A stretch of DNA of 64,000 nucleotides. Source: Pseudomonadota bacterium. Its GTDB lineage: Bacteria; Desulfobacterota; Binatia; UBA9968. The position numbers and the translations under genes were made by a program. This document shows positions 4,371 to 28,943 of the stretch, in pieces (position 1 is the stretch's first letter; each line of letters opens with the position of its first letter). Location: the NCBI GenBank assembly GCA_021324155.1, contig JAJPJQ010000037.1:36427-100426 (forward strand), in the 5' to 3' direction. Under the pieces are notes generated by a model. That model saw only the letters and a program-made list of their open reading frames with translations, searched no databases and was not told the DNA's origin.

Positions 4371-5362
4371 TCGCCCGCGTTCTCGCTGCGCTCGCGGCTG
4401 CTGTCTTGTTGCAAATGGCGCCGACCCGCGCCGACGCGCAGCCGCTGAAGAAGCTCAACCTCTCGTACACTGCGACCAGTCCCTATCAGGCGGTCGTCAT
4501 CATCGCGCAGCAGGCAGGACTCTTCAAGAAATACGGCCTCGACGTCACGCTGATTTTCATGGCTGGAGGGTCGCTCGGCATTTCGGCGATGATGAGCGGC
4601 GAAGTGCCGATCACGCAGGCGGACGGCTCGGCGTCCGTGGGCGCTAGCGCCGCCGGGGTCGATGTCGTCATCTTCGGCAGCTTCTTGAACACGTTTCCGT
4701 ACAGCCTCGTCTCGCTGCCCGAGATAAAGACCGTCGAGCAACTGAAAGGAACAAAGATTGCGATCAGCCGTTTCGGCAGCGCGACCGACCTGAGCGTCAA
4801 GATGGCCCTCGCCAAAGTCGGACTGAACCCGGACAACGTAACGCTGCTGCAAGTCGGCGCGCAGACCGCGCGCGCGGCGGCGCTGCAATCCAAAAACGTC
4901 CAGGCGACGATCATCACGCCGCCGTTCACGCTGACCGCGCGGAAGCTCGGCTACAACACCCTGATCGACATGGCTCAGCTCAATATTCCATACCAGCTGA
5001 CCGCGCTCGTGGGCTCGCGCGCCTATCTCAAAACGCACCGCGACATCATTTTGTCCTTGATGCGCGCGTCGTCCGAAGCGATCCATTTCTACAAGACGCA
5101 AAAAGAAGCGAGCGTCAAAATCTTGAGCAAATATCTCCAGACGACCGATCGCGAGGCGCTCGAGGAGACCTACCGCGAGGTGAGCCTCAAAGCGGTTCCC
5201 GACAAACCCTATCCAACGCTCGCGGGCGTGCAGACGATCTTGGACGAGCTCTCGGCGAAAAATCCGAAGCTTAAGTCCGCGAAACCCGAAGATTATGTCG
5301 ACATGAGCTTCGTCAAAGAGCTCGACGACGAGAAATTTTTCGACCGCTTGTACAAGCGCTGA
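4367..5362 (+). CDS. ABC transporter substrate-binding protein, NMT1/THI5-like
   Basis: Signal peptide; paralog of the other three SBPs. Start overlaps the upstream stop (ATGA), suggesting translational coupling with the citrate-synthase-like gene. Confidence 0.7.
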   Translation: MIARVLAALAAAVLLQMAPTRADAQPLKKLNLSYTATSPYQAVVIIAQQAGLFKKYGLDVTLIFMAGGSLGISAMMSGEVPITQADGSASVGASAAGVDVVIFGSFLNTFPYSLVSLPEIKTVEQLKGTKIAISRFGSATDLSVKMALAKVGLNPDNVTLLQVGAQTARAAALQSKNVQATIITPPFTLTARKLGYNTLIDMAQLNIPYQLTALVGSRAYLKTHRDIILSLMRASSEAIHFYKTQKEASVKILSKYLQTTDREALEETYREVSLKAVPDKPYPTLAGVQTILDELSAKNPKLKSAKPEDYVDMSFVKELDDEKFFDRLYKR

Positions 5363-5377
5363 CTTTTTTTCCAGCCG

Positions 5378-6325
5378 GTGCACGACTTCGTACGACTCTT
5401 CGCCTTTTGCGCTGCGGCCGCGGCTATCGTCGCCGGCTGGGTGTCGCCTGCCGTCGCGTTGGCACTCGGCCTTTTCTTCGGCCTGGGTCCGGGAAATCCG
5501 GCCCCGCGCGTCACCGCCAAATCGCGTTTACTGCTGCAGATATCGGTAGTCGGGCTGGGATTCGGGCTGAATATCGCCATGATCTTGAAAGCCGGCATGG
5601 TCGGCCTGCACGTTACCGCTATAAGCATTGCTGTCATTATGATCGCGGGCTGGTATCTCGGACGCCTGCTGCGCATCGACGGCAGCACTACGCTGCTGGT
5701 CTCGGCAGGGACATCGATCTGCGGCGGCAGCGCGATCGCCGCCGTCGGGAGCGCCATCGAGGCCGACGCCCGCGCGATGTCGATCGCGCTGGCGATTGTG
5801 TTTTCTCTTAACGCCGTCGGGCTGTTCATTTTCCCTTTGCTCGGACATTTCATGGGCCTCAGCCAGAGCGCTTTCGGCCTGTGGGCCGCCGTCGCTATTC
5901 ATGACACGAGCTCGGTGGTCGGAGCCGCCGCGAAATACGGCGACGAGGCGCTGGCCGTCGCGACGACGGTGAAACTCGTCCGTACGTTATGGATACTCCC
6001 GCTGGCGCTCGCTTTAGGGCTGATTAAGCGCCGCAGAGCCGCGCTGGTCGGCTTCCCGTGGTTCATCGTCTTCTTCGTGCTTGCAGCCGGCGTGCGCTCG
6101 CTTTGGCCGGAGCATGAAACGGCGTATCTGTTCATCAAGCGTGCGGCGGTAACCGGATTGACGCTTTCACTTTTTCTTATCGGCGCCGGATTGTCACGAC
6201 AATCGTTGAAAGTTGCCGGCGCGCAGCCGTTCATCCTTGGCGTTGCGCTCTGGATCGGCGCCGCATTCCTCGGCTTGCTCGCTGTTTGGATGTTCGAGTC
6301 CCATTTAGGGGCGATTGCCGGTTGA
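5378..6325 (+). CDS. YeiH/UPF0324 family putative sulfate-exporter-type membrane protein
   Basis: About 10 predicted TM helices. Gly-rich motifs (SAGTSICGGSAIAAVG) typical of the YeiH / Cons_hypoth698 family. Confidence 0.55.
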   Translation: MHDFVRLFAFCAAAAAIVAGWVSPAVALALGLFFGLGPGNPAPRVTAKSRLLLQISVVGLGFGLNIAMILKAGMVGLHVTAISIAVIMIAGWYLGRLLRIDGSTTLLVSAGTSICGGSAIAAVGSAIEADARAMSIALAIVFSLNAVGLFIFPLLGHFMGLSQSAFGLWAAVAIHDTSSVVGAAAKYGDEALAVATTVKLVRTLWILPLALALGLIKRRRAALVGFPWFIVFFVLAAGVRSLWPEHETAYLFIKRAAVTGLTLSLFLIGAGLSRQSLKVAGAQPFILGVALWIGAAFLGLLAVWMFESHLGAIAG

Positions 6326-11839: not shown

Positions 11840-14059
11840 ATGAAAGCGATCGATCCCATTCGCTTCGAGATGTTCTTCCACCGCCTGTGGGCGATCGGCG
11901 AGGAAGGCCGCATGACGCTCCAGCGCGTCACCGCCTCGCCCATCGTCTCGCAAGGCGGCGAGTGCATGAGCTCGTTCTACGACGAGAAGGGCGACATGGT
12001 GCTCGCCTGCTCCGGCCACCTGCGCTTCGCCGCGGCGACGTCGGACGCGATCAAATATTTGATCGACGGCTTCGGCGCCACGCCGGGCTTTCACGACGGC
12101 GACCAGATCTTCTTCAACGACCCGTACGTCGCCGGCTCGCACACGTACGACATGATGGTGATCAAGCCGATCTTCCACAGAAAGAAGCTGATCGCATGGA
12201 CCGCGACCAGCACGCACACCGCCGATACCGGCGGGCTGTTGCGCGGCGCCGCGGAAGAGATTTATCACGAAGGAATCTGCATACCCTGTTTGAAGATCGT
12301 CGAGCGCGGTGAGTTTCGCGAAGACGTCTTTCGCACCCTCACCGGCCAGTGCCGCGATCCGCAGTACGTCGGCCTCGATTTGAAGGCGATGATCGCCGGC
12401 AACAACGTCTGCGCGCGACGCTATCTCGGATTGGTGGAAAAGTTCGGCGCGGATTTCGTGGCCGCCGCGGGTCAGAAGATGATCCGCGACTCCGAAGCCA
12501 AGGCGCGCGCGAAGCTGCGCTCGATGCCCGACGGCGTCTGGGTGACGCGCCAATACGTCACCACGCTCGACCGCAAGTCGCGCAAGTCGGTCGCGCAGCA
12601 GCTTTTCCTCACGATGACGAAGAAAGGCGACGAGCTGCATCTCGATTTTACCGGCACGAGTCCGCAGACCGACACCGACCACAATTCGACGCTGCCGAGC
12701 ACCGTCGCGCATATCGCGCTCGCGCTCACCAACACGCTTTTCTGGGACGTGCCGTGGAGCGACGGCAAAATGCGGCCGGTAACGATTACCGTGCCGGAGG
12801 GCACGATCCTCAACTGCAAGTATCCCGCCGCGTGCGGCGCCGGACCGCGCATCGGCAACGTGCTCGTCTCGACGACCTGCGAGGCCGCGGCGAAAATGAT
12901 TTTCGCATCAGGCCGCAGCGAGGACGTCAATGCATCGACCACAGGTAATTTGGAGTTCGTCGGCGGCCCCGGCTACTTTTACGGCGGCCGCACGCGCGAA
13001 GGCATCCGCGTCGCGCAGGGACTCTACGACATCCACGGTGCGGGCATGGGCGCCGCGCCCTATCGCGACGGCGTCAACACCGGCGGCCACATGAATATTC
13101 CGTCGGCCGGCATCAGCGACGTCGAGCGCATCGAGATGCAGTATCCGTTTTTATACTTCACGCGTGGGCATAACCGCGACGGCAGCGGTTTCGGAAAATA
13201 CCGTGGCGGATTGGGCAGTTATCGTATTTATCTTATCTATGGCTCGAAGGACTGCTCGGTCGACTACAAGCCCTACGGCGGCATCGCGCAGGGCGGCTTC
13301 GGCCTCTTCGGCGGCTATCCGACCGGCATCGGCGCGATGCGCGTCATGACCGAAGCGGGCGTCGACATGGTCGATAAAGTAAAGCAGGGAAAATATCCCG
13401 ACGCGTCATCGATGCGCGCCGGCGATTGGGGCAAGCCGTTTCATCCGCAGGGCGTGCCGGAGCGTATCGCCCTGCCGGAAGGAAGTTTACTTGTCGACTA
13501 TGTCGCCGGCGGCGGCGGTTTCGGCGATCCGCTGGATCGCGCGCCCGAGGCGGTGCTGAAAGATTTCGGCCGCGGCTGGGTCAGCCGAGAGACGGCGGAA
13601 GGAATTTACGGCGTCGTCATTGCCGCCGATGGCAAAAAACTGGACAGCGACGCGACGGCGCGCAAGCGCGAGCACATCCGCCGCGCGCGCCGCGACGAGG
13701 CGAGAGCCGAGGCTGGAAAAACCAGCGCCTTCAACGGCGACGGGAAAAAAGACTTAAAGACGCTGCTCAAATTCCACGCGGCGCTGGAAACCGCCGGCGA
13801 CAGGAAGAACGCCGTCGTGCGCTGCTCGCGCTGCGGCCATGCCTTCTGCTCGGTCAAGGAAAATTACAAGCTCTACGCGCTGCATCGCGTCGTGCACCTG
13901 AAAGACTTCATGCCGAACGCGCTGCCGACGGGCGAGCCGTACATCGGCGAGTATCATTATTATTTCTGCCCCGGCTGCGCGACACAGCTTCAGGTCGACC
14001 TCTTCTGCCCGCCGCTCGGCGGCGAGCCGATTCTCTGGGACATACGGATCGCGTCATGA
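11840..14059 (+). CDS. Hydantoinase B / oxoprolinase / acetone carboxylase alpha-subunit family protein with C-terminal AcxC-like zinc-ribbon (gamma-subunit-like) domain
   Basis: HyuB-family core. The C-terminal about 90 aa carries CSRCGHAFC...YKLYALH...YFCPGCATQL, matching my recollection of the Cys4 Zn-ribbon pattern of acetone carboxylase gamma subunits. Start set at MKAIDP (11840). Confidence 0.8.
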   Translation: MKAIDPIRFEMFFHRLWAIGEEGRMTLQRVTASPIVSQGGECMSSFYDEKGDMVLACSGHLRFAAATSDAIKYLIDGFGATPGFHDGDQIFFNDPYVAGSHTYDMMVIKPIFHRKKLIAWTATSTHTADTGGLLRGAAEEIYHEGICIPCLKIVERGEFREDVFRTLTGQCRDPQYVGLDLKAMIAGNNVCARRYLGLVEKFGADFVAAAGQKMIRDSEAKARAKLRSMPDGVWVTRQYVTTLDRKSRKSVAQQLFLTMTKKGDELHLDFTGTSPQTDTDHNSTLPSTVAHIALALTNTLFWDVPWSDGKMRPVTITVPEGTILNCKYPAACGAGPRIGNVLVSTTCEAAAKMIFASGRSEDVNASTTGNLEFVGGPGYFYGGRTREGIRVAQGLYDIHGAGMGAAPYRDGVNTGGHMNIPSAGISDVERIEMQYPFLYFTRGHNRDGSGFGKYRGGLGSYRIYLIYGSKDCSVDYKPYGGIAQGGFGLFGGYPTGIGAMRVMTEAGVDMVDKVKQGKYPDASSMRAGDWGKPFHPQGVPERIALPEGSLLVDYVAGGGGFGDPLDRAPEAVLKDFGRGWVSRETAEGIYGVVIAADGKKLDSDATARKREHIRRARRDEARAEAGKTSAFNGDGKKDLKTLLKFHAALETAGDRKNAVVRCSRCGHAFCSVKENYKLYALHRVVHLKDFMPNALPTGEPYIGEYHYYFCPGCATQLQVDLFCPPLGGEPILWDIRIAS

Positions 14060-15249
14060 GTCTTCGAGGCAAAGCCGCCGTAGTCGGCATCGGCGAAACG
14101 CCGGTCGATCGGCTAGGCAGAAAGCCGGGCGAGCCGAAGAAATCGACCGCCGAGTATCTCGCTTGGGCCGCGCGCCTCGCGATGGAAGACGCCGGGCTCA
14201 GCAAGCGCGATTTCGACGGCCAGGGGCTCGCCGCGATCTACACGACCAATCACTCCCAGCCGTTCTGGCCCGAAGAGGCGGCGAATATCCTCGGGCTCGC
14301 CCCCGCCGTCTCGCTCGCTGGTGGCAACGGCGGCGCGAGCGCGGTGTCGCTGCTCGGCCACGCGGCGGCGATGATCGACGCCAGCGTCGTCGATCTCGTG
14401 CTCGTCCTCGCCGCGGCGGCGCCTTTCAGCGAGCACGGCCGCACGCGCGCCGAACCCGGCGACACGCGCGACTTCGAGATGCCCTACGGCGTCATGGGGC
14501 CGAACTGCAAGATCTCATTCGTGATGAGCCGCTATATGTACGAGTCCGGTATGACCGTCGACCATTTCGGCAAGATCGCCGTCACCGGCCGTTATCACGC
14601 GACGCTCAATCCAGAGGCATATTTGAGGAAACCGCTGACGCTGGAAGAATATCGCAGCGCGCGCCTCATCTCCGACCCAATCCGGCTCTATGACTGCGTG
14701 CTGCCCGCCAACGGCGGGAAGGCGTACATCATGGCCTCGCCCGCTCGCGCCCGCACACTCAAGAAGCCGCCGGTTTATCTGCTCGGCTGGGGCGAGCGCA
14801 ACAACGCGAGCGCCGGCCCGCGCGCGCACGCGAACCCACTGATCACCGGTATCCGCGAGTCCGGTCAGGCGGCCTTCGCGATGGCCGGCGTGACGCACAA
14901 GGACGTCGACCTGCTCGCGCTCTACGACGACTACATTCCCATCGTCATGCTGCAGATCGAAGACCTCGGCTTCTGTAAGAAAAACGATCGGGAGTTTTTC
15001 GAGCGCACGGACTTCACGTTCAAAGGCGACCTGCCGATCCAGACCGGCGGCGGCATGATCAACTGCGGTCAGCCTTCCACGGCCGGCGGCATGCTGCACG
15101 TGCTCGAGACGGTGCGGCAGCTCCGTGGCGAAGGCGGCGCGCGCCAAGTGGAAGGCGCGAAGATCGGTCTCGCGACCGGCCTCGGCGCCGTCAACTACGG
15201 AAAAAATTTCGGCTGCACTGCGGCCGCGATTTTGGCGAAAGAGCTATAA
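14056..15249 (+). CDS. Thiolase-like (SCP-x / non-specific lipid-transfer-type) protein
   Basis: About 397 aa with the thiolase fold. Start ATG overlaps the upstream TGA (ATGA). Typical partner of DUF35 proteins. Confidence 0.7.
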   Translation: MSLRGKAAVVGIGETPVDRLGRKPGEPKKSTAEYLAWAARLAMEDAGLSKRDFDGQGLAAIYTTNHSQPFWPEEAANILGLAPAVSLAGGNGGASAVSLLGHAAAMIDASVVDLVLVLAAAAPFSEHGRTRAEPGDTRDFEMPYGVMGPNCKISFVMSRYMYESGMTVDHFGKIAVTGRYHATLNPEAYLRKPLTLEEYRSARLISDPIRLYDCVLPANGGKAYIMASPARARTLKKPPVYLLGWGERNNASAGPRAHANPLITGIRESGQAAFAMAGVTHKDVDLLALYDDYIPIVMLQIEDLGFCKKNDREFFERTDFTFKGDLPIQTGGGMINCGQPSTAGGMLHVLETVRQLRGEGGARQVEGAKIGLATGLGAVNYGKNFGCTAAAILAKEL

Positions 15250-15252
15250 ATC

Positions 15253-15681
15253 ATGGCAGAAGCCGTCAAAGAAATTCCCAAGCCGCTGCCCGAAATCACG
15301 TCGGTGACCAAGCCTTTCTGGGACGCGGCGGCCGAAGGTAAGCTGCGCATGCAGAAATGCGCCGCGTGCGGCGCTTGGGTCTGGTGTCCGCGTCCACAAT
15401 GCGGCGAGTGCGGCAGCGAGAAGCTCGTATGGACGGAGCTCAGCGGCCGCGGCGAAGTCTTCGCGTTCACCGTCATCCGCGAGGTCGTCGGGCGCGCGCT
15501 CCGCGGCTTCGAGAAGGATATCCCTTACGTGACCGCCTGGATCGATCTCGAAGAGGGCCCGCGGATCTGCAGCAACATCGTCGGCTGCCCCATCGAGCAG
15601 GTAAAGATCGGCTTGCCCCTCCAAGTGCTGTTCGAGGACGCCGGCCGGGGAATCTTCCTGCCCAAATTTAAGCCGCGCTAA
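15253..15681 (+). CDS. DUF35 OB-fold / rubredoxin-like Zn-ribbon protein
   Basis: Motif CAACGAWVWCPRPQCGECGS (Cys4 Zn ribbon) followed by an OB-fold region. Classical partner of SCP-x thiolases. Confidence 0.75.
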   Translation: MAEAVKEIPKPLPEITSVTKPFWDAAAEGKLRMQKCAACGAWVWCPRPQCGECGSEKLVWTELSGRGEVFAFTVIREVVGRALRGFEKDIPYVTAWIDLEEGPRICSNIVGCPIEQVKIGLPLQVLFEDAGRGIFLPKFKPR

Positions 15682-15758
15682 TATTTTCTGCTCCGCGTTG
15701 TAATCCCGTCAAAGCCGGGTATATTCTAATTGCCGCATTCTTCTTCCCGGAGGATTCT

Positions 15759-16304
15759 ATGAGGCTTTTTTTTGCCGCAGCCGCAGCCACATTGGTTTTC
15801 TCGTGGAGCATCGCGTCCGCGCAAGCGCCGAGCAACGTCATCAAGAACGGCTCTACCGTGGCCCTTGAATACACGCTTACGAGCGAGGATGGGCAGTTCA
15901 CGGAGTCCAACAAGGGCAAGGAGCCTCTGCGTTACGTCGACGGCCGCGACCAGATCATTCCCGGGCTGGAAAGAGCGCTCGAAGGCCTCCCTGCCGGAGC
16001 GGAGAAGAAAGTAACCGTGAAGCCGGAAGACGGCTACGGTCAGGTCGATCCGAAGAATTTTCAGGAAGTGCCGAAGGAAGCGGTGCCGCCCGACTCTCTC
16101 CACGTCGGCACGACGCTCGTCGCGCAAAACGCCCAGGGACAGCAGTTTCCCGTGCGCATCCACGAGATCAAGGAAAAAACCGTCGTCATGGACATGAACC
16201 ATCCGCTTGCAGGCAAAACGCTCGTTTTCGACGTGAAAATCCTCGACGTAAAGCAGCCGGAAGACCAGACGGCTTCCCCGCCAACCAATTCCCCGCGACA
16301 GTAA
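15759..16304 (+). CDS. FKBP-type peptidyl-prolyl cis-trans isomerase (secreted)
   Basis: Signal peptide, then an FKBP domain (GSTVALEYTLT...DGQ.F.....PL.YV.G...IPGLE.AL.G...G). Confidence 0.75.
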   Translation: MRLFFAAAAATLVFSWSIASAQAPSNVIKNGSTVALEYTLTSEDGQFTESNKGKEPLRYVDGRDQIIPGLERALEGLPAGAEKKVTVKPEDGYGQVDPKNFQEVPKEAVPPDSLHVGTTLVAQNAQGQQFPVRIHEIKEKTVVMDMNHPLAGKTLVFDVKILDVKQPEDQTASPPTNSPRQ

Positions 16305-17053
16305 TGACGCTCGAGGAATTCGCCGATCGTTTAAGAAAAACCCGCGAGATAGTTTTTTTCACCGGCGCCGGCATCAGCACGGAGTCCGGCGTGCCGGACT
16401 TCCGCAGCCCCGGCGGTATCTGGACCAAATACCAACCGGTCTATTACGACGAATTCGTCTCGAGCGAGGCGGCTCGCGCGCGCTATTGGAAAATGAAGAA
16501 CGAGACGCACGAGCTCTATAAGGACGTGCGGCCCAACGTCGGCCATTACGCGATCGCGGCGTTCGAGAAACGCGAGCGGCTACTCGGCCTCATTACGCAG
16601 AACGTCGACGGACTGCACGGCCTCGCCGGCGTGTCGCCGGGAAAGATGGTCGAGCTGCACGGCACGGACCGCAAGGTCACCTGCCTCGATTGCGGCAAAG
16701 AATTCGAGCCGGAGCCGATCTACGCCCGGCTGAAGGACGGCGCGATCCCGGGTCCATGCGCGTGCGGAGGACTGCTCAAGCCGGCGACGATCTCGTTCGG
16801 GCAAGCGATGCCGCAGGACGCGATGCGCCGCGCGGCGCAATGGAGCGAGACAGCGGAGATTTTCGTCGTCGTCGGCTCTTCACTCGCGGTGCAGCCCGCG
16901 GCGTCGTTTCCCGTCGTCGCGAAGCGCAGCGGCGCGCTGCTCGCGATTGTCAACCGCGAGGCCACGCCTCTCGACGATTTAGCCGATTACAACTACCGCG
17001 GCGCAATCGGCGAATTCTTCACGACGCTGAATCCGCTGCTCGCCGACGGATAA
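16304..17053 (+). CDS. cobB: NAD-dependent protein deacylase, Sir2 family
   Basis: GAGIS(T)ESGVPDFR motif, QNVDGLH, and Zn-binding CxxC...CxC (CLDCG...CACGG). Start overlaps the FKBP stop (TAATG). Confidence 0.8.
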   Translation: MTLEEFADRLRKTREIVFFTGAGISTESGVPDFRSPGGIWTKYQPVYYDEFVSSEAARARYWKMKNETHELYKDVRPNVGHYAIAAFEKRERLLGLITQNVDGLHGLAGVSPGKMVELHGTDRKVTCLDCGKEFEPEPIYARLKDGAIPGPCACGGLLKPATISFGQAMPQDAMRRAAQWSETAEIFVVVGSSLAVQPAASFPVVAKRSGALLAIVNREATPLDDLADYNYRGAIGEFFTTLNPLLADG

Positions 17054-17061
17054 AGCGCTCG

Positions 17062-17343
17062 TCACGGACGCGGATAGACGTCGGCACCGTCCGGCGCTTT
17101 GTTTTCGACACCGTGCCATTATTGGCAAATGAATAATTTCCCGCATTGTCCACGCGGCCGCCGCGCATGCTCGGCTTGTTGCCGGTGATCCTGCTGTTGG
17201 TCAAGCGTAGACGTGCCGCCGTCATTTTCGACCCCACCGCCATCTCTCGCGGAATTTCCAGAAATAGCTCTACCCGGATTGATGTAGAGGCCGGCGCGGT
17301 AGTTGTAAATACCGCCGCCGGAACCCTGCGCTTTGTTTCTCAA
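17062..17343 (-). pseudogene. Frameshifted C-terminal remnant of a sixth CSLREA/beta-helix paralog
   Basis: Minus-strand frames give ...GGGIYNYRAGLYINPGRAISGNSARDGGGVENDGG..., ...SRITGNKPSMRGGRVDNAGNYSFANNGTVSKTK and, in a third frame, NKAPDGADVYPRP*. These match the C-termini of the intact paralogs (NKAPNGADVYP*). At least two frameshifts, and no N-terminal part. Confidence 0.55.
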
Positions 17344-17389
17344 GCCTAAAGCCTCGACTTCTCTTCCAGCATTATAATAAACTTGTCGC

Positions 17390-18652
17390 GTGCCTCGGCG
17401 ATTTTACTACGGGTACATCATCCTCTTTCTCTGCTTCGTCAATACGATGTTCGCGCGCGGCGCTGTCGCGTCGTTCAGCGTCTTCTATGTCGCGCTCCTA
17501 GAAGACTTTCACTGGTCGCATGCCGTCGGTGCGAGCGTCGTTTCGTTGAACTCGCTCGTCTATGCTTCCGTGTCGCCAGGGGTCGGATACCTCTTCGACC
17601 GACTCGGACCGCGGGCGCTGATGCCGCTCGCCGGACTATTGATGGGGCTCGGCTTCGTTTTATCCGGCTTCGGTCATTCGCTATGGGAGCTGTATCTCTT
17701 CTACGGGATTCTCGCAGCCGTCGGTCAGGGCGGCCTGGGCTTCGTCACGCAAAGCGCGCTGCTGTCCGCGTGGTTCGTGCGCCGCCGCGCGACCGCGATC
17801 GGTCTCGCGAGCGCGGGACAGGGCTTCGGCATCATCGCGCTCGTGCCGCTCGCGCAATTTTGGATCGCGCGCGCCGGCTGGCGCACGGCGTTCATGCTCG
17901 TCGGCGCTTTCATCCTCCTCGCGGTGATTCCGCTGAACGCGATCTTTCAGCGGCGCACGCCGGCGCTCGTCGGGCAACTCCCCGACGGCGCGGGCGCTGC
18001 CGTCGACGATCCGAACTACCGCGGCGGCGCCGTTGCGGGGCCCGAGTGGACGCTCGGCGCGGCACTTCGCTCCGCGCCTTTCTGGACAATCGCCTGCGGA
18101 CATCTCGCGCTCGGCACGGCCCTGTTCATCATCTATACCCATTTCGTCGCGCATCTCGTCGAGCAGGGTTTTGAGAAGTTGACAGCCGCGTTCCTGTTCG
18201 GAATCGTCGGATTCATGCGAGTCGTCGGGACGTTCGTCTGGGGCTATGCCTCGGACGTCCTCGGAAGAGCGCCGGCTTACGGTCTCTCGATTCTCGTCGC
18301 GGCGGCGGGCATTCTCGCGATCGCGGCGATCGGCGCGGGAATGCCTCCCTGGCTGGCATACGCCGCCGCGGTCGTCTACGGCCTCGGCCACAGCGCCGGC
18401 AATCCGACCTATGGCGCGGTGATCGGCGATATTTTCGCCGGCAAGAACATCGGCACGATCTTCGGTTTTCTGGAAATCACTTTCGGCATCGGCATGGCGA
18501 TTGGCTCGTGGGCGGGCGGCGCGATCTTCGACGTGAGCGGCTCGTATCGCGCGGCGTTCATGCTGAGCCTCGCGTGCTTCGTTCTATCCTTCGTTGCGAT
18601 TCAGGCGACCGCGGGCTGGCGGCGTAAGAATGCGCCGGCGATCGGATCTTGA
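17390..18652 (+). CDS. MFS transporter (OFA-like)
   Basis: 12 predicted TM helices; MFS motifs (LFDRLGPRA, GLGFVLSG). Confidence 0.75.
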   Translation: MPRRFYYGYIILFLCFVNTMFARGAVASFSVFYVALLEDFHWSHAVGASVVSLNSLVYASVSPGVGYLFDRLGPRALMPLAGLLMGLGFVLSGFGHSLWELYLFYGILAAVGQGGLGFVTQSALLSAWFVRRRATAIGLASAGQGFGIIALVPLAQFWIARAGWRTAFMLVGAFILLAVIPLNAIFQRRTPALVGQLPDGAGAAVDDPNYRGGAVAGPEWTLGAALRSAPFWTIACGHLALGTALFIIYTHFVAHLVEQGFEKLTAAFLFGIVGFMRVVGTFVWGYASDVLGRAPAYGLSILVAAAGILAIAAIGAGMPPWLAYAAAVVYGLGHSAGNPTYGAVIGDIFAGKNIGTIFGFLEITFGIGMAIGSWAGGAIFDVSGSYRAAFMLSLACFVLSFVAIQATAGWRRKNAPAIGS

Positions 18653-19978
18653 TTAGGGGTATACGTCGGCGCCGTTCGGCGCCTTGTTCTTCGCGATCGT
18701 GCTGTTGGACGGAACGAAGGTTGCGCCGGCGTTGTTGAAGACGCCGCCGCCGCGGTCCGCAGCTTTATTGCCGCTGACGACGCTGTCGGCAAGCTTGAAA
18801 TAGCCGTGGATATTCGCGACTCCGCCCGCGTAAACGCCGGCGCCGTTCTTCGTCAGCATGGTGTCGTAGATGTAAAGCCGGCCGATCGCCGCTCCGCTGC
18901 CGTAGTTTTCGACGCCGCCGCCGTACATCGCGCTGTTGCCGGTAATGACGCTGTTGAAAATTTTCGCCGTGCCGTAAACGTTGTCGATACCGGCGGCGGC
19001 GCGCGACGCACGATTCTTGGCGATGGTGCTGTGCTCGATGCGCAGATAACCGTCGTAATTGGCGATTGCCCCGCCTTCGCTCGACGCGGTATTGCCCGAG
19101 AGCGTGCTATCCACGATACGAATGTACTGGTAGCTGAATAGCGCGCCGCCGACCTCCGCTTCATTCTTACTGATGACGCTATCGCGAATCAGGAGAGCGG
19201 CCGCCGGGCCGCGGCTGTAGATGGCGCCGCCGTTAGCTGCGGTGTTGCCGGAGATCGTCGATGAATTGACGGCGAGGCTGCCGTAATTAAGAATCGCGCC
19301 GCCTGTGGTCGCCGAGCCGCCGCTCAGCGTCACATCTTCCAGCGTCAGATCCCCCGACACCGCGACCGCGAGCAACCGGAACGCCGGCGCTTTCTTCGAC
19401 CGAATAATCTTCGCGTGATTGCCGGCGATGGTGATAGCGCTCGCGACGATCGGGAGACCCGTCGCGCCGGCGTAGTCGGTGTAAGCCTGCGCCAGCTGCT
19501 GCGTTCCCTTGGGCAAAACGATGATGTCAGCGCCGCTGCCGGCGGCGCAGTCGGAGTACGTCGCCGCATCGTCGTTAGCGTTGACGATCGCCTCGGCCAG
19601 CGAGCAATGGCCGTCGCCATCGACGACCGCCGGGATCTTTGCGGTAACGGTAATGGTCGCCGCTTCGCCGGTTTGCGCAATCGCGCACAGCAGTGCCGCG
19701 GCCGCGATTGAGCGCGAGAGCTTGCGCAGCACATGGCGGCGCCCCTGCCGCGGCAACAAATCATCGATGTGCCGCGCGCGAACGAGCCGCCGTTCGAGCG
19801 ATCGGCGCATGCCGTGCGGCAATCGCCGAAGGACGGGATACCAGAACGCAAAGCGAGGCAGCAACTCGCCGCGGCGGACGGTCAACGCCGCGGCGAGCTC
19901 AGGCGCGTCGCTGAATTGCGCGAGTCCGGAGTTCCACGCGGCGACGATTCTCTCGTCCCGCTTGAGTCCCGCTACCAC
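18653..19978 (-). CDS. CSLREA-domain / right-handed parallel beta-helix repeat surface protein, paralog P1, with conserved N-terminal cytoplasmic-type domain and internal signal anchor
   Basis: CSLAEAIVNAN (CSLREA-type motif) follows the hydrophobic segment IAAAALLCAIAQTGEAAT. Pectate-lyase-like repeats (GGAI.N.G...S.ISGN.A). C-terminus ...GADVYP*. Confidence 0.7.
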   Translation of the reverse strand: MVAGLKRDERIVAAWNSGLAQFSDAPELAAALTVRRGELLPRFAFWYPVLRRLPHGMRRSLERRLVRARHIDDLLPRQGRRHVLRKLSRSIAAAALLCAIAQTGEAATITVTAKIPAVVDGDGHCSLAEAIVNANDDAATYSDCAAGSGADIIVLPKGTQQLAQAYTDYAGATGLPIVASAITIAGNHAKIIRSKKAPAFRLLAVAVSGDLTLEDVTLSGGSATTGGAILNYGSLAVNSSTISGNTAANGGAIYSRGPAAALLIRDSVISKNEAEVGGALFSYQYIRIVDSTLSGNTASSEGGAIANYDGYLRIEHSTIAKNRASRAAAGIDNVYGTAKIFNSVITGNSAMYGGGVENYGSGAAIGRLYIYDTMLTKNGAGVYAGGVANIHGYFKLADSVVSGNKAADRGGGVFNNAGATFVPSNSTIAKNKAPNGADVYP

Positions 19979-20045: not shown

Positions 20046-21374
20046 TCATGAGCCGTATACGTCCGCTCCGGTTGGCGCTTTATTGCGTGTCACGACACCG
20101 CCGTCGGTGAAAACGCCCGTCCCTGACGTATCGACACCGCCGCCGTACGTCGTAGCGGTGTTTTTCGTAATCGTCCCGCTCGTCAAAGCGAAGGAGCCCC
20201 GATTCGAGACGCCGCCGCCGGCATCGCTGCGATTTCCGGAGATGGTGCTGCCGGTAACCGTGAGGCTATCGCCGTCGCCGTTGTAAATACCGCCGCCTCT
20301 GCCCGACGCGCTGTTTTTCGTGATCGTCGTGTCGGAAATCACGGTCACGCCGTAGACGGCGATGCCGCCGCCCTTCGACGCGCTGTTACCGGTAATGACG
20401 CTGCCGGTGATCGTGTCGTGCGCCGTCGTAGAAAGCAGACCGCCGCCGAACGACGGATTGCCGTGGTACGGCACGGCTTTATTTTTCGACAGCGTGCTAT
20501 TCGTCATGGTGAACGTGCCGCTGTAATTCGTCACGCCGCCGCCGTAGTTCGCGACGTTATTTGTGATCACGCTGTCGCTCACGCTAAGACTCCCGTAAAG
20601 GATGAAAACGGCCCCTCCTTCGAACGCCACATTCCCGGAGATGGTACTGTGGATGATCGTGACACTGCCGTAATCGTCAATCGCGCCGCCGCGCAGCCGT
20701 CCGTTGGCGTCGCCGCCGCTGAGCGTGACATCTTGAAGTGTAAGATCGCCGGATGCGCTGACCGCCATCAGGCGGAACGGCTCAGCTTTTTTGCTGCGGA
20801 CGATTTTCGCGCCGTTTCCCTGGATTGTGATCTTCGTATTGATCACCGGGAGGCCGGTCTTGCCCAAGTCGTCGTTGTCGGCGGCCGTGATCGTGATCGT
20901 TCCTTTGGGCAGAACGATCGTATCGTCGCCGGTTCCCGCCTCGCAGTCGCCGAACGTAGCGCCGCCATTGTTGGCGTTGACGATCGCCTCCGCGAGCGAG
21001 CATTTGCCGTCGCCGTCGTTGATTTCCGCCGGCGTCTTCGGCGTCACGTTGATCGTCGCCGCCTGACCGGCTCCCTGCGTCAGCGCGAGCAGCAGCGCCG
21101 CGCCGGCGAGAGAGGTCGCGAGCCGCATCTGCCACGCTGGAAGAGCGGCGCGCCGGCAGCGGCGTACGAGCTTTCGCTCGAACGCGCGCCGCGCACCGCG
21201 CGGCAGCGCGCGCAAGCGCGCGTAATAATCGGCGAAGCGCGGCAAAAGCTTTGCGCCTTCCTGTGCGACGATGTCGTTGAATCCCGGCACATTCGCCAGC
21301 TCTCCCACTTGAGAATCCCAAGCGGCGACGATCGTATCGTCCAATGAAACGGCATATGCCTGAAAATAGTTCAT
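20046..21374 (-). CDS. CSLREA-domain / parallel beta-helix repeat protein, paralog P2
   Basis: Same architecture: N-domain (AAWDS...LPRFADYYARLRALPRGARRAFERKL), h-region MRLATSLAGAALLLALTQGAGQAAT, CSLAEAIVNAN, beta-helix repeats, C-terminus ...GADVYGS*. Confidence 0.7.
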   Translation of the reverse strand: MNYFQAYAVSLDDTIVAAWDSQVGELANVPGFNDIVAQEGAKLLPRFADYYARLRALPRGARRAFERKLVRRCRRAALPAWQMRLATSLAGAALLLALTQGAGQAATINVTPKTPAEINDGDGKCSLAEAIVNANNGGATFGDCEAGTGDDTIVLPKGTITITAADNDDLGKTGLPVINTKITIQGNGAKIVRSKKAEPFRLMAVSASGDLTLQDVTLSGGDANGRLRGGAIDDYGSVTIIHSTISGNVAFEGGAVFILYGSLSVSDSVITNNVANYGGGVTNYSGTFTMTNSTLSKNKAVPYHGNPSFGGGLLSTTAHDTITGSVITGNSASKGGGIAVYGVTVISDTTITKNSASGRGGGIYNGDGDSLTVTGSTISGNRSDAGGGVSNRGSFALTSGTITKNTATTYGGGVDTSGTGVFTDGGVVTRNKAPTGADVYGS

Positions 21375-21652: not shown

Positions 21653-23200
21653 TCACGGGTAAACGTCGGCATGCGCCGCCGCGGTATTGCCGCTGATAGT
21701 GCTGTTATTAATCTGCAACGTAGCATCAGGCGGTGGCAGATTATAAATACCGCCGGCGACGAACAGAGCCGTGTTTCCGGTTACCGAGCTGCCGTTTAGA
21801 TAAATGTAGCTCGAATTATGGATACCGCCGCCCTTGCCGCCGTAATTGGACTGGGAGTAGGCAACATACTTGCCTTCGGCCGTGTTGGTTCCGTTAATCG
21901 TGCTGCTGTTGATCGTAAGACCGCCGTGATTGTTAATCCCGCCGCCGTAGCCGCCGACGTAATATGTTTTGTTGTTGTACACACTTGGTGAGACGGTTGC
22001 ATGATTACCCGAAACGGTGCTGCTGGTAATTACGGCGTCGGCCTGATCATCATTGAACAACCCGCCGCCGTAATTCGCGTTGCTATTCGAGATCGTAATG
22101 CTGGTGGCGATTAGGGTATGGGCGTTATGCAAACTGCCGCCTTTAAATGCGCTGTTTCCCGTTAAGGTGCTGCTCCCGATCGAAAGCCGTCCGTAAGGAA
22201 CGCCGATCGCGATGCCGCCGCCGTTCCTCGCCGCGGTGTTGGTCGAGATCGTGCTGTTCGTGATCGTCGCACTGTAAGCGTTGTCGATGCCGCCGCCGTC
22301 ATAATTCGCATGATTGCCGGTAATCGTGCTGTTGTTCGTGACCGTGAGATTGCCGATATTGTAGATGCCGCCGCCGTAATCAGCGGTGCTGTTGCTGACA
22401 TTACTGTGATTGAGGCTCAGATTCCCAGAGTTGAAGATGGCGCCGCCGATCGGCGCCGTCCCCGAGATCACACTATCGACAATGGAGACGCTGCCGGCAT
22501 TGTAGATCGCGCCGCCGTTATAGACAGAAGATGATCCCTGTACCGTGACGTTCTGCAACGTCAGGCTGCCCCCATCGTTGACAAAAAAGATACTATTACC
22601 CGTGATCCTGCCGCCTGTGCCCGGAGGTGGCGGAGGTTGGCCTTTTTTCGGCTTTTTGGCCGCAACTCCTTGAATTGTGATATTTCCGCTGATGGGCGGC
22701 AAATAGCTTGCGCTTATACTTGCGTTTTTCGGCAGCGCGATGATCGTGGGACCAGGCGAGGCTTGGCAGCCACTGTAACTATAAGATTTCTTCGTGACCG
22801 GGTATCCCGTAGTGTTCGCGTATTCGGCAGCATAGATCGCGTTATACAGCGAGCACTTTGTGCTGAGCTTGATGGGCTTCGGACCCTTAGCTTCTGAAAT
22901 CGTTTGTCCGAGCGCGATCAACAACGCCGCGCCGGCAATCGAATACGCGAGTCTGCGCCGCCAGTCGGCGGGAATTGCCGCGTCTTCAGAGCGCGCGAGG
23001 TTGCGTTGCAGCGCGCGGCGCACGGTCCGCGGCAGCGCGCGGATTTCGTTGTATGAGGTGGTGAATCGCTGGAACAACTCCTGGCCCTGCTCTGCCAGGA
23101 TTTGCTCGATCCAGGGTGTTTTGATACGGCGGAGCTCTGAATCCCAAGCGGTGACGACCGACTCGTCCGCAGGAAGCGGACACGGAGAGAGATAATTCAT
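21653..23200 (-). CDS. Parallel beta-helix repeat protein, divergent paralog P3 (degenerate CSL motif, Pro/Lys-rich linker)
   Basis: N-domain conserved (VTAWDSE...FQRFTTSYNEIRALPRTVRRALQRNL); TM-like LAYSIAGAALLIALGQ; KCSLYNAIYAAEYAN. Long N-x-T/S-rich beta-helix repeats; C-terminus ...AHADVYP*. Confidence 0.6.
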   Translation of the reverse strand: MNYLSPCPLPADESVVTAWDSELRRIKTPWIEQILAEQGQELFQRFTTSYNEIRALPRTVRRALQRNLARSEDAAIPADWRRRLAYSIAGAALLIALGQTISEAKGPKPIKLSTKCSLYNAIYAAEYANTTGYPVTKKSYSYSGCQASPGPTIIALPKNASISASYLPPISGNITIQGVAAKKPKKGQPPPPPGTGGRITGNSIFFVNDGGSLTLQNVTVQGSSSVYNGGAIYNAGSVSIVDSVISGTAPIGGAIFNSGNLSLNHSNVSNSTADYGGGIYNIGNLTVTNNSTITGNHANYDGGGIDNAYSATITNSTISTNTAARNGGGIAIGVPYGRLSIGSSTLTGNSAFKGGSLHNAHTLIATSITISNSNANYGGGLFNDDQADAVITSSTVSGNHATVSPSVYNNKTYYVGGYGGGINNHGGLTINSSTINGTNTAEGKYVAYSQSNYGGKGGGIHNSSYIYLNGSSVTGNTALFVAGGIYNLPPPDATLQINNSTISGNTAAAHADVYP

Positions 23201-23212
23201 CCGACCTGTTAC

Positions 23213-25561
23213 TTACTGCCTTGCGCTCGCGCCGCGCAAAGCATCGGCAACGCGTTGGATTACGCCGGACCAGTTGCCGGCCTCGCTTTGCCGGAAAAGA
23301 CTCATCGTCGGATACCACGGAGTGGTCTCTCCGGTCAATCCCCAACGCCAGTCGGCGGCGTCGCTGAGCAGCGTCCATGCAGGCTTTCCCAGCGCTCCGG
23401 CCATGTGGGCTACCGAAGTATCGACGGCGATGACGAGGTCGAGCTGGTCGATGAGGATCGCGAGGTCGCCGAAGTCGCCGAGCAAAGGATCGAGATCGTG
23501 GACCTTTACGTCCGACGGCAGCTCGCTCAAGTCTTTGGCGCGCTCGCCCTTTTGCAGGCTGAAAAAATCCGCACCTGATACGCGCAAGATGGGAAGAAAG
23601 TCTTTCAAAGCGCACGAGCGCTGGCGGTCGGTGCGGTTAATCGGGCTGCCCGCCCACGCGATGCCGATCTTTGGGCGCGGCGAAGGGGCCAGGACGAGCG
23701 CCGGATTTTCTTTCCGGCGGCGGAGCGCCGCAGCGTCGAGGTAAGGAACCGCCGAAGGGATCGTCTCCGGCGTCGTGCCGAAAACGTACGGCAGGCTCAA
23801 CATCGGCAGATGCGTATCGAAGTCGCCGACTTTGATTTCGCCGGGCTCGCGAATATGCGCGACGCCGGGGATCGTGGCGAACACCGCGCTCAGATCGGGG
23901 CGGCAGGCGAGGACGACTCTCTTGCAGCGCTCGGCCGCCATTGGCAGATAGCGCGCGAACTGGATCGCGTCGCCCGCGCCCTGCTCGTTATAAACGAGCA
24001 GAGTCTTTTCCGGCGCCGGCTTTCCGTCCCACGGTGGATGCGGCGAGCGCACCGCCGGGAACTGCGGCAGCTTTCGGCGCGACTCGTATTCGGCGAGGCC
24101 GCGCGTATAGTCGCCAACCTGAAGCAGGCACATGCCGAGGTTCATACGCGCTTGCGGATAATTGGGCTGGAGTTCGAGGGCGCGCTCGTACGCGGCGATC
24201 GCCTTTTGCGGCTCGCGCCGGCGCGCGAAAGCGAAGCCGAGGCTATTGTAAGCCTCGGCGCGCTCGGGCTCCGCCGCGACAACCTGCTCAAGCTCGGTGA
24301 CGGCGTCGGCATACTTGCCGGCGTCGCCCAGCGCGACACCGAGGTTGAAGCGCGCGTTGGGAAATTCCGGCTGGAGCGCGACACATTGCCGGTAGGCCGC
24401 GACCGCCTCTTCGATCTTGCCTTTCGAATACAGCTCGTTGCCGCGCTGAAAGTGAAACCCCGGCGAGCGCTCCAGCTCTTCGGGGCTCGGCAGATGCACG
24501 TCCGCGAGCGCCTCGTCGGGCAGAACGTAGGATTGCGCGAGCCGCGGATCGGTCCATTCGAGCATCTCCGGAAACCGGATGCCCTGAAGCGCCTGCACGG
24601 CGAAGATCTCCTGCACGCCGGCCTCGAAGCGGAGAAAGCCAACCGTCTGGCCGTTCTCGATATTGACGATCCAAACGCCGCACGTGCGCTCTTTCAGCCG
24701 CTGCACCAGCGGAATGCCGCTGAAAACCGCGCTCTCGCGCACCTGCGAGAGACCGATGAAGGCGAGCGGGCCGATGAAGTCGATGCCACGCGTGAAGCCC
24801 GGCACCTGCGCCACGGCGCGCCACGTTCGCGATTCGAGATCAATCTCCGCCAGCGTCCCCTCGCCCGATTCGAGCACCCAGAGCTTGTCGCGATACCAGC
24901 GCGGTGAGTGCGGCATGGAAAGGCCGCGCAGCAGAATCTCGTTCGTCTCGATGTCCATCAAAAGGCCGCCGCGGGCTTTATTCGCGCGCCACCCGCCGGC
25001 CGTGTCGGTCTCGCCGAGAGCGGTGACATACTTCGGCCGGCCGTCCACCATCGCGAGGCCGTTCAAGTGACAGCGGTCCTCCGGCGCGAGCGCGCTCACG
25101 AACGGCGGGCGCCAGCGTGGATGAAAGCTGTGATCGACATCGAGCGTACAGAGGCAGCAGAAACGCGTGTTCACGACCCAGAGCTCGTTCTTCGCGTCCC
25201 ACGCGAGCTCATGGATGTCGATGTCCCCCGTGACGTGAATGCGCCGCGGCAGATAACAGGCGTCGTGCTTTCCCGGCGGGTCCAGCTTTTGCGCGACCGC
25301 CGGCATATTGCGGTATTCCCAGACCGTATTCGCGCCGCCGATCGTGAGGCGGTTGTGGTCGGCGGCGATCCCCATCGGCTTGGCGAACGTACGGAAGTGC
25401 GTGTTGAGGGCGCCGCCGTCGTTGCGCACGACGATCGTCTTTCCCGCCTGGTAGGTGGAAACGACGAGACTGATCTGCAGCCGCTCGAAAAGCGCTGGAA
25501 GATTCGCCGTATGGACGCTGCGGAGGGGTGCGTCCTCGGTGGTCTCTGGTGCTTGAGCCAT
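23213..25561 (-). CDS. Multidomain glycosyltransferase: N-terminal about 330-aa conserved domain (tentatively TIGR03032-like) + TPR repeats + C-terminal glycosyltransferase family 9 (heptosyltransferase-like) domain
   Basis: Central TPR repeats (AYRQCVALQP...NLGVALGD...AYNSLGFAF...). C-terminal GT9 signature (IGIAWAGSP...DLVIAVDTSVAHMAGALGKPAWTLL). 12 bp from the P3 start and 53 bp from the P4 stop, so embedded in the array. Confidence 0.7.
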   Translation of the reverse strand: MAQAPETTEDAPLRSVHTANLPALFERLQISLVVSTYQAGKTIVVRNDGGALNTHFRTFAKPMGIAADHNRLTIGGANTVWEYRNMPAVAQKLDPPGKHDACYLPRRIHVTGDIDIHELAWDAKNELWVVNTRFCCLCTLDVDHSFHPRWRPPFVSALAPEDRCHLNGLAMVDGRPKYVTALGETDTAGGWRANKARGGLLMDIETNEILLRGLSMPHSPRWYRDKLWVLESGEGTLAEIDLESRTWRAVAQVPGFTRGIDFIGPLAFIGLSQVRESAVFSGIPLVQRLKERTCGVWIVNIENGQTVGFLRFEAGVQEIFAVQALQGIRFPEMLEWTDPRLAQSYVLPDEALADVHLPSPEELERSPGFHFQRGNELYSKGKIEEAVAAYRQCVALQPEFPNARFNLGVALGDAGKYADAVTELEQVVAAEPERAEAYNSLGFAFARRREPQKAIAAYERALELQPNYPQARMNLGMCLLQVGDYTRGLAEYESRRKLPQFPAVRSPHPPWDGKPAPEKTLLVYNEQGAGDAIQFARYLPMAAERCKRVVLACRPDLSAVFATIPGVAHIREPGEIKVGDFDTHLPMLSLPYVFGTTPETIPSAVPYLDAAALRRRKENPALVLAPSPRPKIGIAWAGSPINRTDRQRSCALKDFLPILRVSGADFFSLQKGERAKDLSELPSDVKVHDLDPLLGDFGDLAILIDQLDLVIAVDTSVAHMAGALGKPAWTLLSDAADWRWGLTGETTPWYPTMSLFRQSEAGNWSGVIQRVADALRGASARQ

Positions 25562-27308: not shown

Positions 27309-28943
27309 TTATTTCTCGAAGGCGCCGATGTCGCACGCAGCGCCCTGCGGGCGTGCGATTCCGCGCTGATCCTCGGAAGGACAATCAGGGCCTACAGGCG
27401 CTGCGTCGATCGCCGGACTGCCGGGCACAAGCGCGTGTGTGGGCGTCGGTCCGCCGTTGTCGGCGAGGGGGCCGAGAATTTTCGTGATGGTCGTTCCCGT
27501 CGGAGGGATAATGTCGGACGCTCCAGGTGTGAAGCCGATCACCCCGGCATTACCGTTAGTGCCGAACAAGTTGTGATTGTCGACGGTGATCCCAGTGCCA
27601 TTATGCTTAACTTCCGCAGCTGAGCCCTTGTTGCCTGATACGAGCGTCCGCTTAATGGTCATATCGCCGCGATTATAGACCCCGCCGGCGATCTTTCCCT
27701 TATTGCCCGTAATCGTGCTGTTACTTAGAGTTAAAGACGCGCCATAAATACCTCCCGCATATTTCGCGCTGTTACCTGAGATCGTGCTGTTTTCGATAAC
27801 ACCCGGGGCAGCTCCACTTGAGATCCCGCCGCCGCCAGGCCCTGCTTTGTTCGCTATCACTGTACTGTTCTCGACCGTCAGAGTGCAATTGAAGCTCTGG
27901 ATGCCACCACCATCAAAATGAGCCGAGTTCGATGAAATAATACTGTTACTTATGTTAGTGGTGCAGTACGGTTCGTGATAATTGAAAGCGTTAGCTAATA
28001 CGCCGCCGCCGTGTTCAGCAGCGATGTTTTTCGATATCGTTGTGTTATCGACCTCAAGCAGGCCGTTGTTATACAAAGCGCCGCGATTTGCTCGATTTCC
28101 GCTCACCGAACTGTGTTGAACTGACGCTGTACCGTCCTCATGATTGAAAATCGCCGAACCGAGTCTGGCTAGATTCCCCGAAAGCACGCTGTTTTCGATC
28201 GTGACATCGCCGCGGTTATAGATGCCTCCACCATAATTGGCTATGTTGATATTGATTGTGCTGTCTTCAATCGTCACGGCGCCATAATTAAGAATCGCTC
28301 CGCCTTTAACTTGAGCGCCGCCGCTCAGAGTAATGTGATCTAAGGTCAGATCACCCGAGGTCGTGACGGTAATAAGACGAATCGGAGTCTTGCTCTTCTT
28401 CACGGTAATTCGCGCGCCGTTGCCCTGAATGATGATTTGACTCGTTATCACCGGCAGGCGCGAGCCATATACCGTATCGTAAATCCCGGTCACGGCGTGA
28501 ACGCTTGCGGCAGGAAGCGCTATGGTATCTGTTCCGCTCCCCGGCAAACAGTCCGCATGTGTCGCCGCGTCGTTGTTCGCATTGATGATCGCCTCCACGA
28601 GCGAGCAGAGACCGTCACCGGCGATCTTCGGAATGTTCGTGTTGACGGTGATCGTCGCCGCCGGAGCCGCTTGCGCGAGCGCGAGTAGCAGCGCCGCGCC
28701 CGCGATGGACGCGGCGAGCCTTTGTGTGGCGGCGGCAGAAACATTGAGGCCGCATGAGCACGCGAGCTTTCGCTGCAGCGCACGGCGCGCGCCGCGCGGC
28801 AGGGATCTAATTTTGGCGTACGCGGCGGCGAAGCGCGGAAAAATCTCTTGCTCGCCGCCCAACGGCGGCGCATGCCGGACGGATTCCCACGCTGCGAGAA
28901 GATTGTCGTCTACCGGGAAAGAGAGCGGTTGAGAATAATACAC
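27309..28943 (-). CDS. CSLREA / choice-of-anchor-Q-type parallel beta-helix repeat protein, paralog P5 (first gene of the array, GTG start)
   Basis: N-domain (AAWES...FPRFAAAYAKIRSLPRGARRALQRKL); TM-like LAASIAGAALLLALAQAAPAAT; CSLVEAIINAN. C-terminal LADNGGPTPTHALVPGSPAIDAAP...CDIGAFEK*. GGAGG RBS 7 nt upstream of GTG. Confidence 0.7.
   Translation of the reverse strand: MYYSQPLSFPVDDNLLAAWESVRHAPPLGGEQEIFPRFAAAYAKIRSLPRGARRALQRKLACSCGLNVSAAATQRLAASIAGAALLLALAQAAPAATITVNTNIPKIAGDGLCSLVEAIINANNDAATHADCLPGSGTDTIALPAASVHAVTGIYDTVYGSRLPVITSQIIIQGNGARITVKKSKTPIRLITVTTSGDLTLDHITLSGGAQVKGGAILNYGAVTIEDSTININIANYGGGIYNRGDVTIENSVLSGNLARLGSAIFNHEDGTASVQHSSVSGNRANRGALYNNGLLEVDNTTISKNIAAEHGGGVLANAFNYHEPYCTTNISNSIISSNSAHFDGGGIQSFNCTLTVENSTVIANKAGPGGGGISSGAAPGVIENSTISGNSAKYAGGIYGASLTLSNSTITGNKGKIAGGVYNRGDMTIKRTLVSGNKGSAAEVKHNGTGITVDNHNLFGTNGNAGVIGFTPGASDIIPPTGTTITKILGPLADNGGPTPTHALVPGSPAIDAAPVGPDCPSEDQRGIARPQGAACDIGAFEK

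Follow-up and report, generated by a model that had tools for sequence, protein, structure and literature searches.

Between cobB and a neighbouring MFS transporter gene, the window analysed here (a stretch of 64,000 nucleotides, whose numbering is used throughout) carries what is very probably the non-functional relic of a sixth PMP-repeat beta-helix gene, most of which was removed in bulk by a deletion. Taken jointly with the full gain-and-loss account of the locus, this reading of 17062–17339 is given a probability of about 0.9. The relic, psi-P0, consists of the last 91 codons (405–495) of a gene here called P0, followed by its TGA stop at 17064–17062. It lies in the 336-bp gap between the cobB stop codon at 17053 and the GTG start codon of the MFS gene at 17390. 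An intact P0 is present at the orthologous locus of a related soil genome, here called L004. The features of the window that surround the relic are as follows.

16304–17053, plus strand: cobB, encoding a SIR2-family deacylase (PF02146); convergent with psi-P0
17062–17339, minus strand: psi-P0, the pseudogene remnant, identified from its translations, its similarity to the paralogs and its orthologous alignment to L004 4489–4763
17340–17389, plus strand: conserved MFS upstream element, outside the remnant and the right-hand bound of the deletion
17390–18652, plus strand: MFS transporter gene (PF07690), convergent with P1; before the deletion it would have been divergent from P0
18653–19978, minus strand: P1, intact paralog of 441 aa with Chlam_PMP repeats
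20046–21374, minus strand: P2, intact paralog of 442 aa, the closest in-window paralog to the remnant
21653–23200, minus strand: P3, intact paralog of 515 aa
25615–27183, minus strand: P4, intact paralog of 522 aa from the ATG at 27183
27309–28943, minus strand: P5, intact paralog of 544 aa with Beta_helix and choice-of-anchor Q domains

Some of these boundaries depend on the choice of start codon. The longest ORF for P4 (25615–27384, minus strand) begins with TTG, encodes 589 aa and overlaps P5 by 76 bp; the ATG at 27183 (522 aa, MDYLRPYAF...) is used by the gene callers and by the orthologue in the related locus L005. Callers also differ on the MFS gene, which is started at 17447 (401 aa) in the ENA and Logan contigs and at 17390 in the NCBI contig. 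The product from the GTG at 17390 is 420 aa long, and this start is favoured by the conservation of VPRRFYYGY... / MRPRLYYGY... across MFS orthologues. At its other end, the MFS gene (last base 18652) converges on the P1 ORF (ending at 18653) with zero intergenic bases, which leaves no room for a separate terminator. A minus-strand gene within the array (23213–25561), flanked by P3 and P4, encodes a 782-aa protein in which a DUF4915 domain (438 bits) is combined with TPR repeats and a C-terminus that weakly resembles heptosyltransferases (Glyco_transf_9). The protein is also conserved in L005, and may be a candidate modifier or helper of the beta-helix proteins.

An earlier note on this DNA had described a dead sixth beta-helix paralog in the cobB–MFS gap, and the similarity behind that description is real and far above chance. 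In a translated alignment (tblastn) of P1–P5 against 16250–18652, significant matches are found and are confined to the gap, the best having E = 6.7e-7 (P2) with the frames uncorrected. Once the frames are corrected, the peptide matches P2 with 47% identity (E = 1e-17) and P1 with 44% identity (E = 6e-15), each over 89 aa (blastp with composition-based statistics), and both alignments are colinear at the C-terminal ends, as the earlier note had it. The motifs GGGIYN and NKAP.GADVYP are common to the remnant and P1–P3. The minus strand of 17054–17389 does hold all three peptides that had been quoted, but they occupy two reading frames rather than the three claimed. Frame A encodes ...RNKAQGSGGGIYNYRAGLYINPGRAISGNSARDGGGVENDGGTSTL... 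and, further along, ...ENKAPDGADVYPRP up to the stop, and frame B encodes the intervening ...RLRLTNSRITGNKPSMRGGRVDNAGNYSFANNGTVSKTK...; the first and third peptides thus share a frame, and the reading path runs from A to B and back to A through two mutually compensating 1-bp frameshifts.

Annotation gives no sign of a gene here. None of the three annotated assemblies places a gene call in the gap, and the two 74-aa ORFs left in the remnant are likewise called by no annotation. The 91-aa remnant alone has no Pfam match at E <= 0.01 and none in NCBIfam. When the frame-corrected 109-aa peptide was used as the query of a word-indexed protein search, no match reached E <= 1e-3, a result attributable to the shortness of the query and its divergence from everything except the C-termini of its orthologues. 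Repairing both frameshifts restores an ORF of 91 codons that still has no start codon, no N-terminal region and no upstream region; only 50 bp separate the end of the remnant from the MFS start.

The genomes closest to the window are Candidatus Binatia soil MAGs, and it is among these that an intact sixth paralog, which the earlier note had suggested might be seen at the orthologous locus, is found. In MAG SMAG_U3751 (Candidatus Binatia, soil; locus L004), whose cobB product is 95% identical in amino acid sequence to that of the window, P0 is an intact 495-aa ORF at 4489–5976, lying between cobB and the MFS gene; it converges with cobB, and it is situated upstream of the MFS gene and points away from it. 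A second intact orthologue, P0002, is 85% identical to L004 P0 at the protein level and occurs on a contig of JGI metagenome 3300041967 in the context MFS–P0–SIR2–FKBP, with the same neighbours as L004 P0.

Comparison with L004 delimits the lost part of the gene exactly. Two blastn blocks join the loci, one aligning L004 1–4763 to window 12595–17339 (89%, a continuous alignment of 4,775 bp) and the other aligning L004 6186–6839 to window 17338–17992 (92%), so the window is without L004 4764–6185. The deletion therefore amounts to 1,422 bp, comprising P0 codons 1–404, start codon included, and 209 bp upstream of P0. The deleted stretch contains the sole promoter-like site found there, on the L004 minus strand at 6127–6100. 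Within the 91 surviving codons there are exactly three indels relative to L004, namely one added base, one lost base and one added codon. The remnant is thus orthologous to L004 P0, and its 5' loss is a single simple deletion. The earlier note had called the segment a frameshifted, 5'-truncated pseudogene, and both the truncation and the two frameshifts can be placed to within a few bases:

17338–17339: deletion junction, a TC common to both L004 flanks, located from the 2-nt overlap of the blastn blocks and base-by-base comparison; with TC at both L004 breakpoints, this is a 2-bp microhomology junction
17203–17204, minus strand: frameshift 1, from frame A to frame B, an extra T (window CGCTTGACC, L004 CGCTGACC)
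17105–17107, minus strand: frameshift 2, from frame B to frame A, one base lost (window GTGTCGAAAAC, L004 GTGTCGGGAAAC)

The C-terminal tail of the living gene has a history of its own. The tail of L004 P0, NKAKTDQDISYNP (L004 4489–4530, minus strand), is atypical and AT-rich. The family consensus NKAP.G.DV.P is kept both by the dead copy in the window and by P0002, and it was therefore the tail of the living L004 gene that changed.

On its right-hand side, the deletion ends about 14 bp to the left of a conserved element upstream of the MFS gene. This element, CCTCGACTT ... ATTATAnTAAACT ... GTG, is about 41–50 bp long, lies directly upstream of the MFS start and is conserved in the window, L004, L005, L006, L021, L029, L022 and L023; in the spacer of L022 (9939–10000), a part of it, TCGACTTCCGGC, is present as a tandem copy. 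A string search finds TATAAT at 17373–17378, 11 nt before the GTG at 17390, and there is no obvious Shine-Dalgarno sequence. A sigma-70 two-hexamer scan gave no full promoter match for the MFS gene. We infer that the element acts as the promoter of the MFS gene, and the arrangement suggests a leaderless or near-leaderless transcript.

The surviving codons have changed faster than their surroundings. Nucleotide identity to L004 is 79.7% for the remnant and 91–93% for the flanking genes. The pairwise dN/dS of the remnant against L004 is 0.28–0.31. The ratio is about 0.105 when the 91 C-terminal codons of P1 and P2 are compared between the window and L005/L006, and 0.07–0.09 for cobB and the MFS gene (window versus L004); a value of 0.3 is elevated yet far under 1, and these measures of constraint rest on a small sample of 79–91 codons. 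In a three-way C-terminal alignment of 79 columns, from which the divergent tail was excluded, the remnant has 14 private amino acid changes, L004 has 1 and P0002 has 2, although the remnant branch may include an internal branch if the genome of P0002 is nearer to L004 than the window is. Changes in the remnant fall at conserved repeat positions, where GGGVDN has become GGRVDN, NKA has become NKP, and PSTISGN has become PGRAISGN.

The amount of change also gives a rough indication of when decay began. The Jukes–Cantor distance between the remnant and L004 is about 0.24, of which about 0.05 would be expected on the constrained L004 branch, by a rough and indirect partition; on the same partition, the remaining remnant branch would be near or above the per-branch synonymous divergence of its neighbours, about 0.15. 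The fragment has thus probably been drifting through most of the time since the window and L004 split. Homology to an intact gene, a disabled frame and relaxed constraint, the features by which a pseudogene is recognised, are all found in this segment, and the remnant, presumably no longer expressed, is an ordinary, textbook bacterial pseudogene relic.

How P0 came to lie at this junction is a separate question, addressed here by comparison across relatives. One genome scan and one metagenome scan yielded 13 loci with both cobB and the MFS gene, 11 of which, including the window, were placed in a neighbour-joining tree built from cobB and the first 123 MFS residues. The resulting topology is ((window, L004), (L005, L006, L021, L029)), L022, L023, (L024, L028), L025, with bootstrap values of 200/200 both for the window–L004 pair and for that pair joined to the L005 group. 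In each of the eight more distant relatives with the order cobB then MFS (L005, L006, L021, L029, L022, L023, L024 and L028), the MFS gene starts only about 50–90 bp past the cobB stop, and no trace of P0 is found between the two genes. The order is reversed, MFS then cobB, in L025–L027.

On this distribution, the direct adjacency of cobB and MFS most likely came first and P0 arrived later. A single gain of P0 in the ancestor of the window and L004, followed by one partial loss in the window, is the account regarded as probable, since by parsimony over the 11 loci it is preferred to at least four complete, scarless losses. The sequence of events would begin with the insertion of P0 into an older, direct cobB–MFS junction. 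In the common ancestor of the window genome and L004, P0 stood between the two genes, convergent with cobB and divergent from MFS. In the window lineage, a single illegitimate deletion, some 1.4 kb long, then joined two TC dinucleotides. It removed everything upstream of P0, the start codon and N-terminal region of the gene and about 80% of the beta-helix, and its right-hand end falls shortly before the conserved element upstream of MFS. The 91 codons left behind, without promoter or start codon, have since drifted, acquiring one extra base, losing another, gaining one codon and accumulating many amino acid replacements. The locus would thus preserve a single gain and a later partial loss in a family of paralogs with rapid turnover.

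It may be, alternatively, that P0 is ancestral at this junction and has been completely lost several times, the window having been caught mid-loss. This is rather unlikely, but several observations are in its favour. P0 is as diverged from P1–P5 (41–46% identity) as these are from each other, as would be expected of an old paralog and not of a fresh local duplicate. Bacterial genomes are biased toward deletion. Arrival on a mobile element was sought in L004 4400–6300 and rejected, as this interval has no flanking direct or inverted repeats beyond the internal periodicity of the beta-helix, and the surroundings of P0 there show no scars of insertion. Nor was a donor found: orthologues aside, nothing in a collection of 5.8 billion proteins is more than 49% identical to P0. 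Set against this, an ancestral P0 requires at least four independent losses, each complete and scarless (in the L005 group, L022, L023 and L024/L028), and L022 and L023 have the same short spacer, CGCAC...TCCTCGAC.

A variant of the ancestral-P0 account, raised in the earlier note, held that the MFS region had interrupted or replaced part of a longer ancestral array. This has to be given up: both L004 and the P0002 contig have the MFS gene beside an intact P0, so that the transporter did not truncate it, the truncation is the 1,422-bp deletion, and the direct cobB–MFS adjacency in all eight of the more distant relatives also runs counter to an interruption. Whether P0 was gained once or lost repeatedly, the MFS gene was a neighbour of the intact gene beforehand. 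The broader claim that the array is dynamic is borne out, as it differs between close relatives. Gain of P0 followed by partial loss revises the direction of events: the transporter did not break the array, and the sixth paralog is most likely a newcomer.

Retention of the remnant for some function, whether as a donor cassette for gene conversion, as a terminator or insulator of cobB, or as a short ORF or phase-variable gene, is very improbable. That it seems to have survived for about as long as the window and L004 have been separate would fit such a role, as would the two remaining 74-aa ORFs and a terminator-like hairpin with a T-rich tail on the plus strand at 17079–17096, 26 nt past the cobB stop. 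However, exact matches to the paralogs reach 18 bp at most (P2) and do not exceed 12 bp in the other four, lengths insufficient for efficient homologous recombination, and no trace of gene conversion between the remnant and P1–P5, in the form of long near-identical tracts or mosaics, was found. The hairpin (-18.7 kcal/mol) has z = -0.22 against shuffled sequences, and relatives without the remnant have no hairpin at this position; a role as the cobB terminator was rejected. Phase variation was rejected as well, as the frameshift sites, TT (17203–17204) and G/AAAA (17105–17107), contain no long repeat tract and the 5' four-fifths of the gene is gone. An Rfam scan of 16800–17600 gave only chance-level matches, and a promoter scan found no promoter-like site for the remnant. 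The absence of a gene call in any of the three annotations and a substitution pattern that looks like drift also speak against function. There is an equally slim chance that the fragment serves as a recombination substrate for P1–P5, or that paralog turnover at the cobB–MFS junction reflects adaptive cell-surface variation; if so, soil Binatia would vary PMP-like surface proteins much as Chlamydia varies its Pmp arrays, in a free-living, uncultured phylum.

A sequencing or assembly artefact, in which the frameshifts are erroneous and the real genome carries an intact gene, can be given hardly any weight. The two frameshifts do cancel, +1 being followed by -1 about 100 nt later, and one of them adjoins a short run of A, which speaks for an artefact. 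Yet the verdict of truncation does not depend on them, as the repaired ORF still has only 91 codons and lacks a start, an N-terminus and an upstream region, with the MFS start codon 50 bp away. The cobB product and the surrounding DNA are found, 100% identical across the region, on three contigs: a k141-named ENA contig of 506 kb (ERZ27279688), a Logan contig (SRR5581483) and an NCBI contig (GCA_037025685.1), although these assemblies may share reads. The excess of substitutions in the remnant is also not expected from errors, and an assembly error is thus an unlikely source of the remnant. That the fragment is a decayed copy of P1 or P2, that the 3' end of one of these was partially duplicated in recent times, or that Gly-rich, high-GC sequence produces the likeness by chance, is scarcely credible despite the motifs common to it and P1–P3: amino acid identity of only 44–47% to P1 and P2 compares with about 80% nucleotide identity to the syntenic, colinear 3' end of L004 P0, an alignment that refutes these readings, and the low E values against P2 and P1 were obtained with composition-based statistics.

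For annotation, the consequence is that a 336-bp "intergenic" gap consists of a pseudogene fragment and an MFS upstream element. The locus provides a clean, datable case, with one deletion at a 2-bp microhomology, two frameshifts and what appears to be roughly neutral drift, and it documents the gain and loss of a member of a fast-evolving surface-repeat family among related, uncultured soil Binatia. Existing knowledge of pseudogenes or of beta-helix proteins is not changed by it.

The parent family is related to several known groups of proteins. PF02415 PMP repeats are detected in P0 (53 bits), P1 (29.3) and P2 (25.1), the cut-off being 20.6, and neither the PF07548 middle domain nor the PF03797 autotransporter beta-barrel is present in P0, P1, P2 or P5. 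A choice-of-anchor Q domain (NF041518) is found in P5 only among the proteins scanned, at 89 bits against a cut-off of 25 bits. P0, P1, P2 and the remnant are without it, their C-termini reading NKAP.GADVYP. Rhombotarget A (TIGR04212) is a weak relative, with scores of 19–39 bits that are far under the cut-off of 295. All paralogs have a CSL.EAI motif and beta-helix repeats in common. They also have, in P1–P5 and L004 P0 alike, a conserved N-terminal region of about 70–100 aa (MNYF.AY...D..VAAWDS...; L.PRF...Y..L..LPR.ARR.LQRKLA) that precedes a hydrophobic segment (AGAALLLALAQ) and the CSL.EAI motif. This region has no Pfam or NCBIfam match; so long a conserved extension before an apparent signal or anchor is unusual.

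The closest published parallel is with the Pmp proteins of Chlamydia, in which PmpG has undergone paralog expansion, frameshifts and pseudogenisation (PMC6740158). Like these, the Binatia array has PF02415 repeats, tandem paralogs, variable copy number and frameshifted or truncated members. Pmps are, however, defined by the PF07548 middle domain and the PF03797 barrel (PMC6740158), both of which the Binatia proteins lack, and the Binatia host is a free-living soil organism. Many frameshifts of the chlamydial PmpG arrays lie in poly-G/C tracts, where they act as switches, whereas those of the Binatia remnant lie outside such tracts, which points to decay and not to phase variation.

A second likeness is to the beta-helix proteins of the choice-of-anchor Q or CSLREA type, through the domain of P5 and through the CSL.EAI motif and repeats of all the paralogs. 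P0, P1, P2 and the remnant differ from these proteins in their NKAP.GADVYP ends.

The nearest match to psi-P0 itself is with the bacterial pseudogene relics that Mira, Ochman and Moran are said to have described in 2001, which are reportedly made by deletion and then eroded under a deletional bias. Like such relics, psi-P0 is truncated, promoterless and frameshifted; a close relative retains the intact parent gene, the fragment evolves more quickly than the genes around it, and other relatives lack it entirely. Nothing essential sets it apart from them, save that its parent gene itself appears to be recent at the site.
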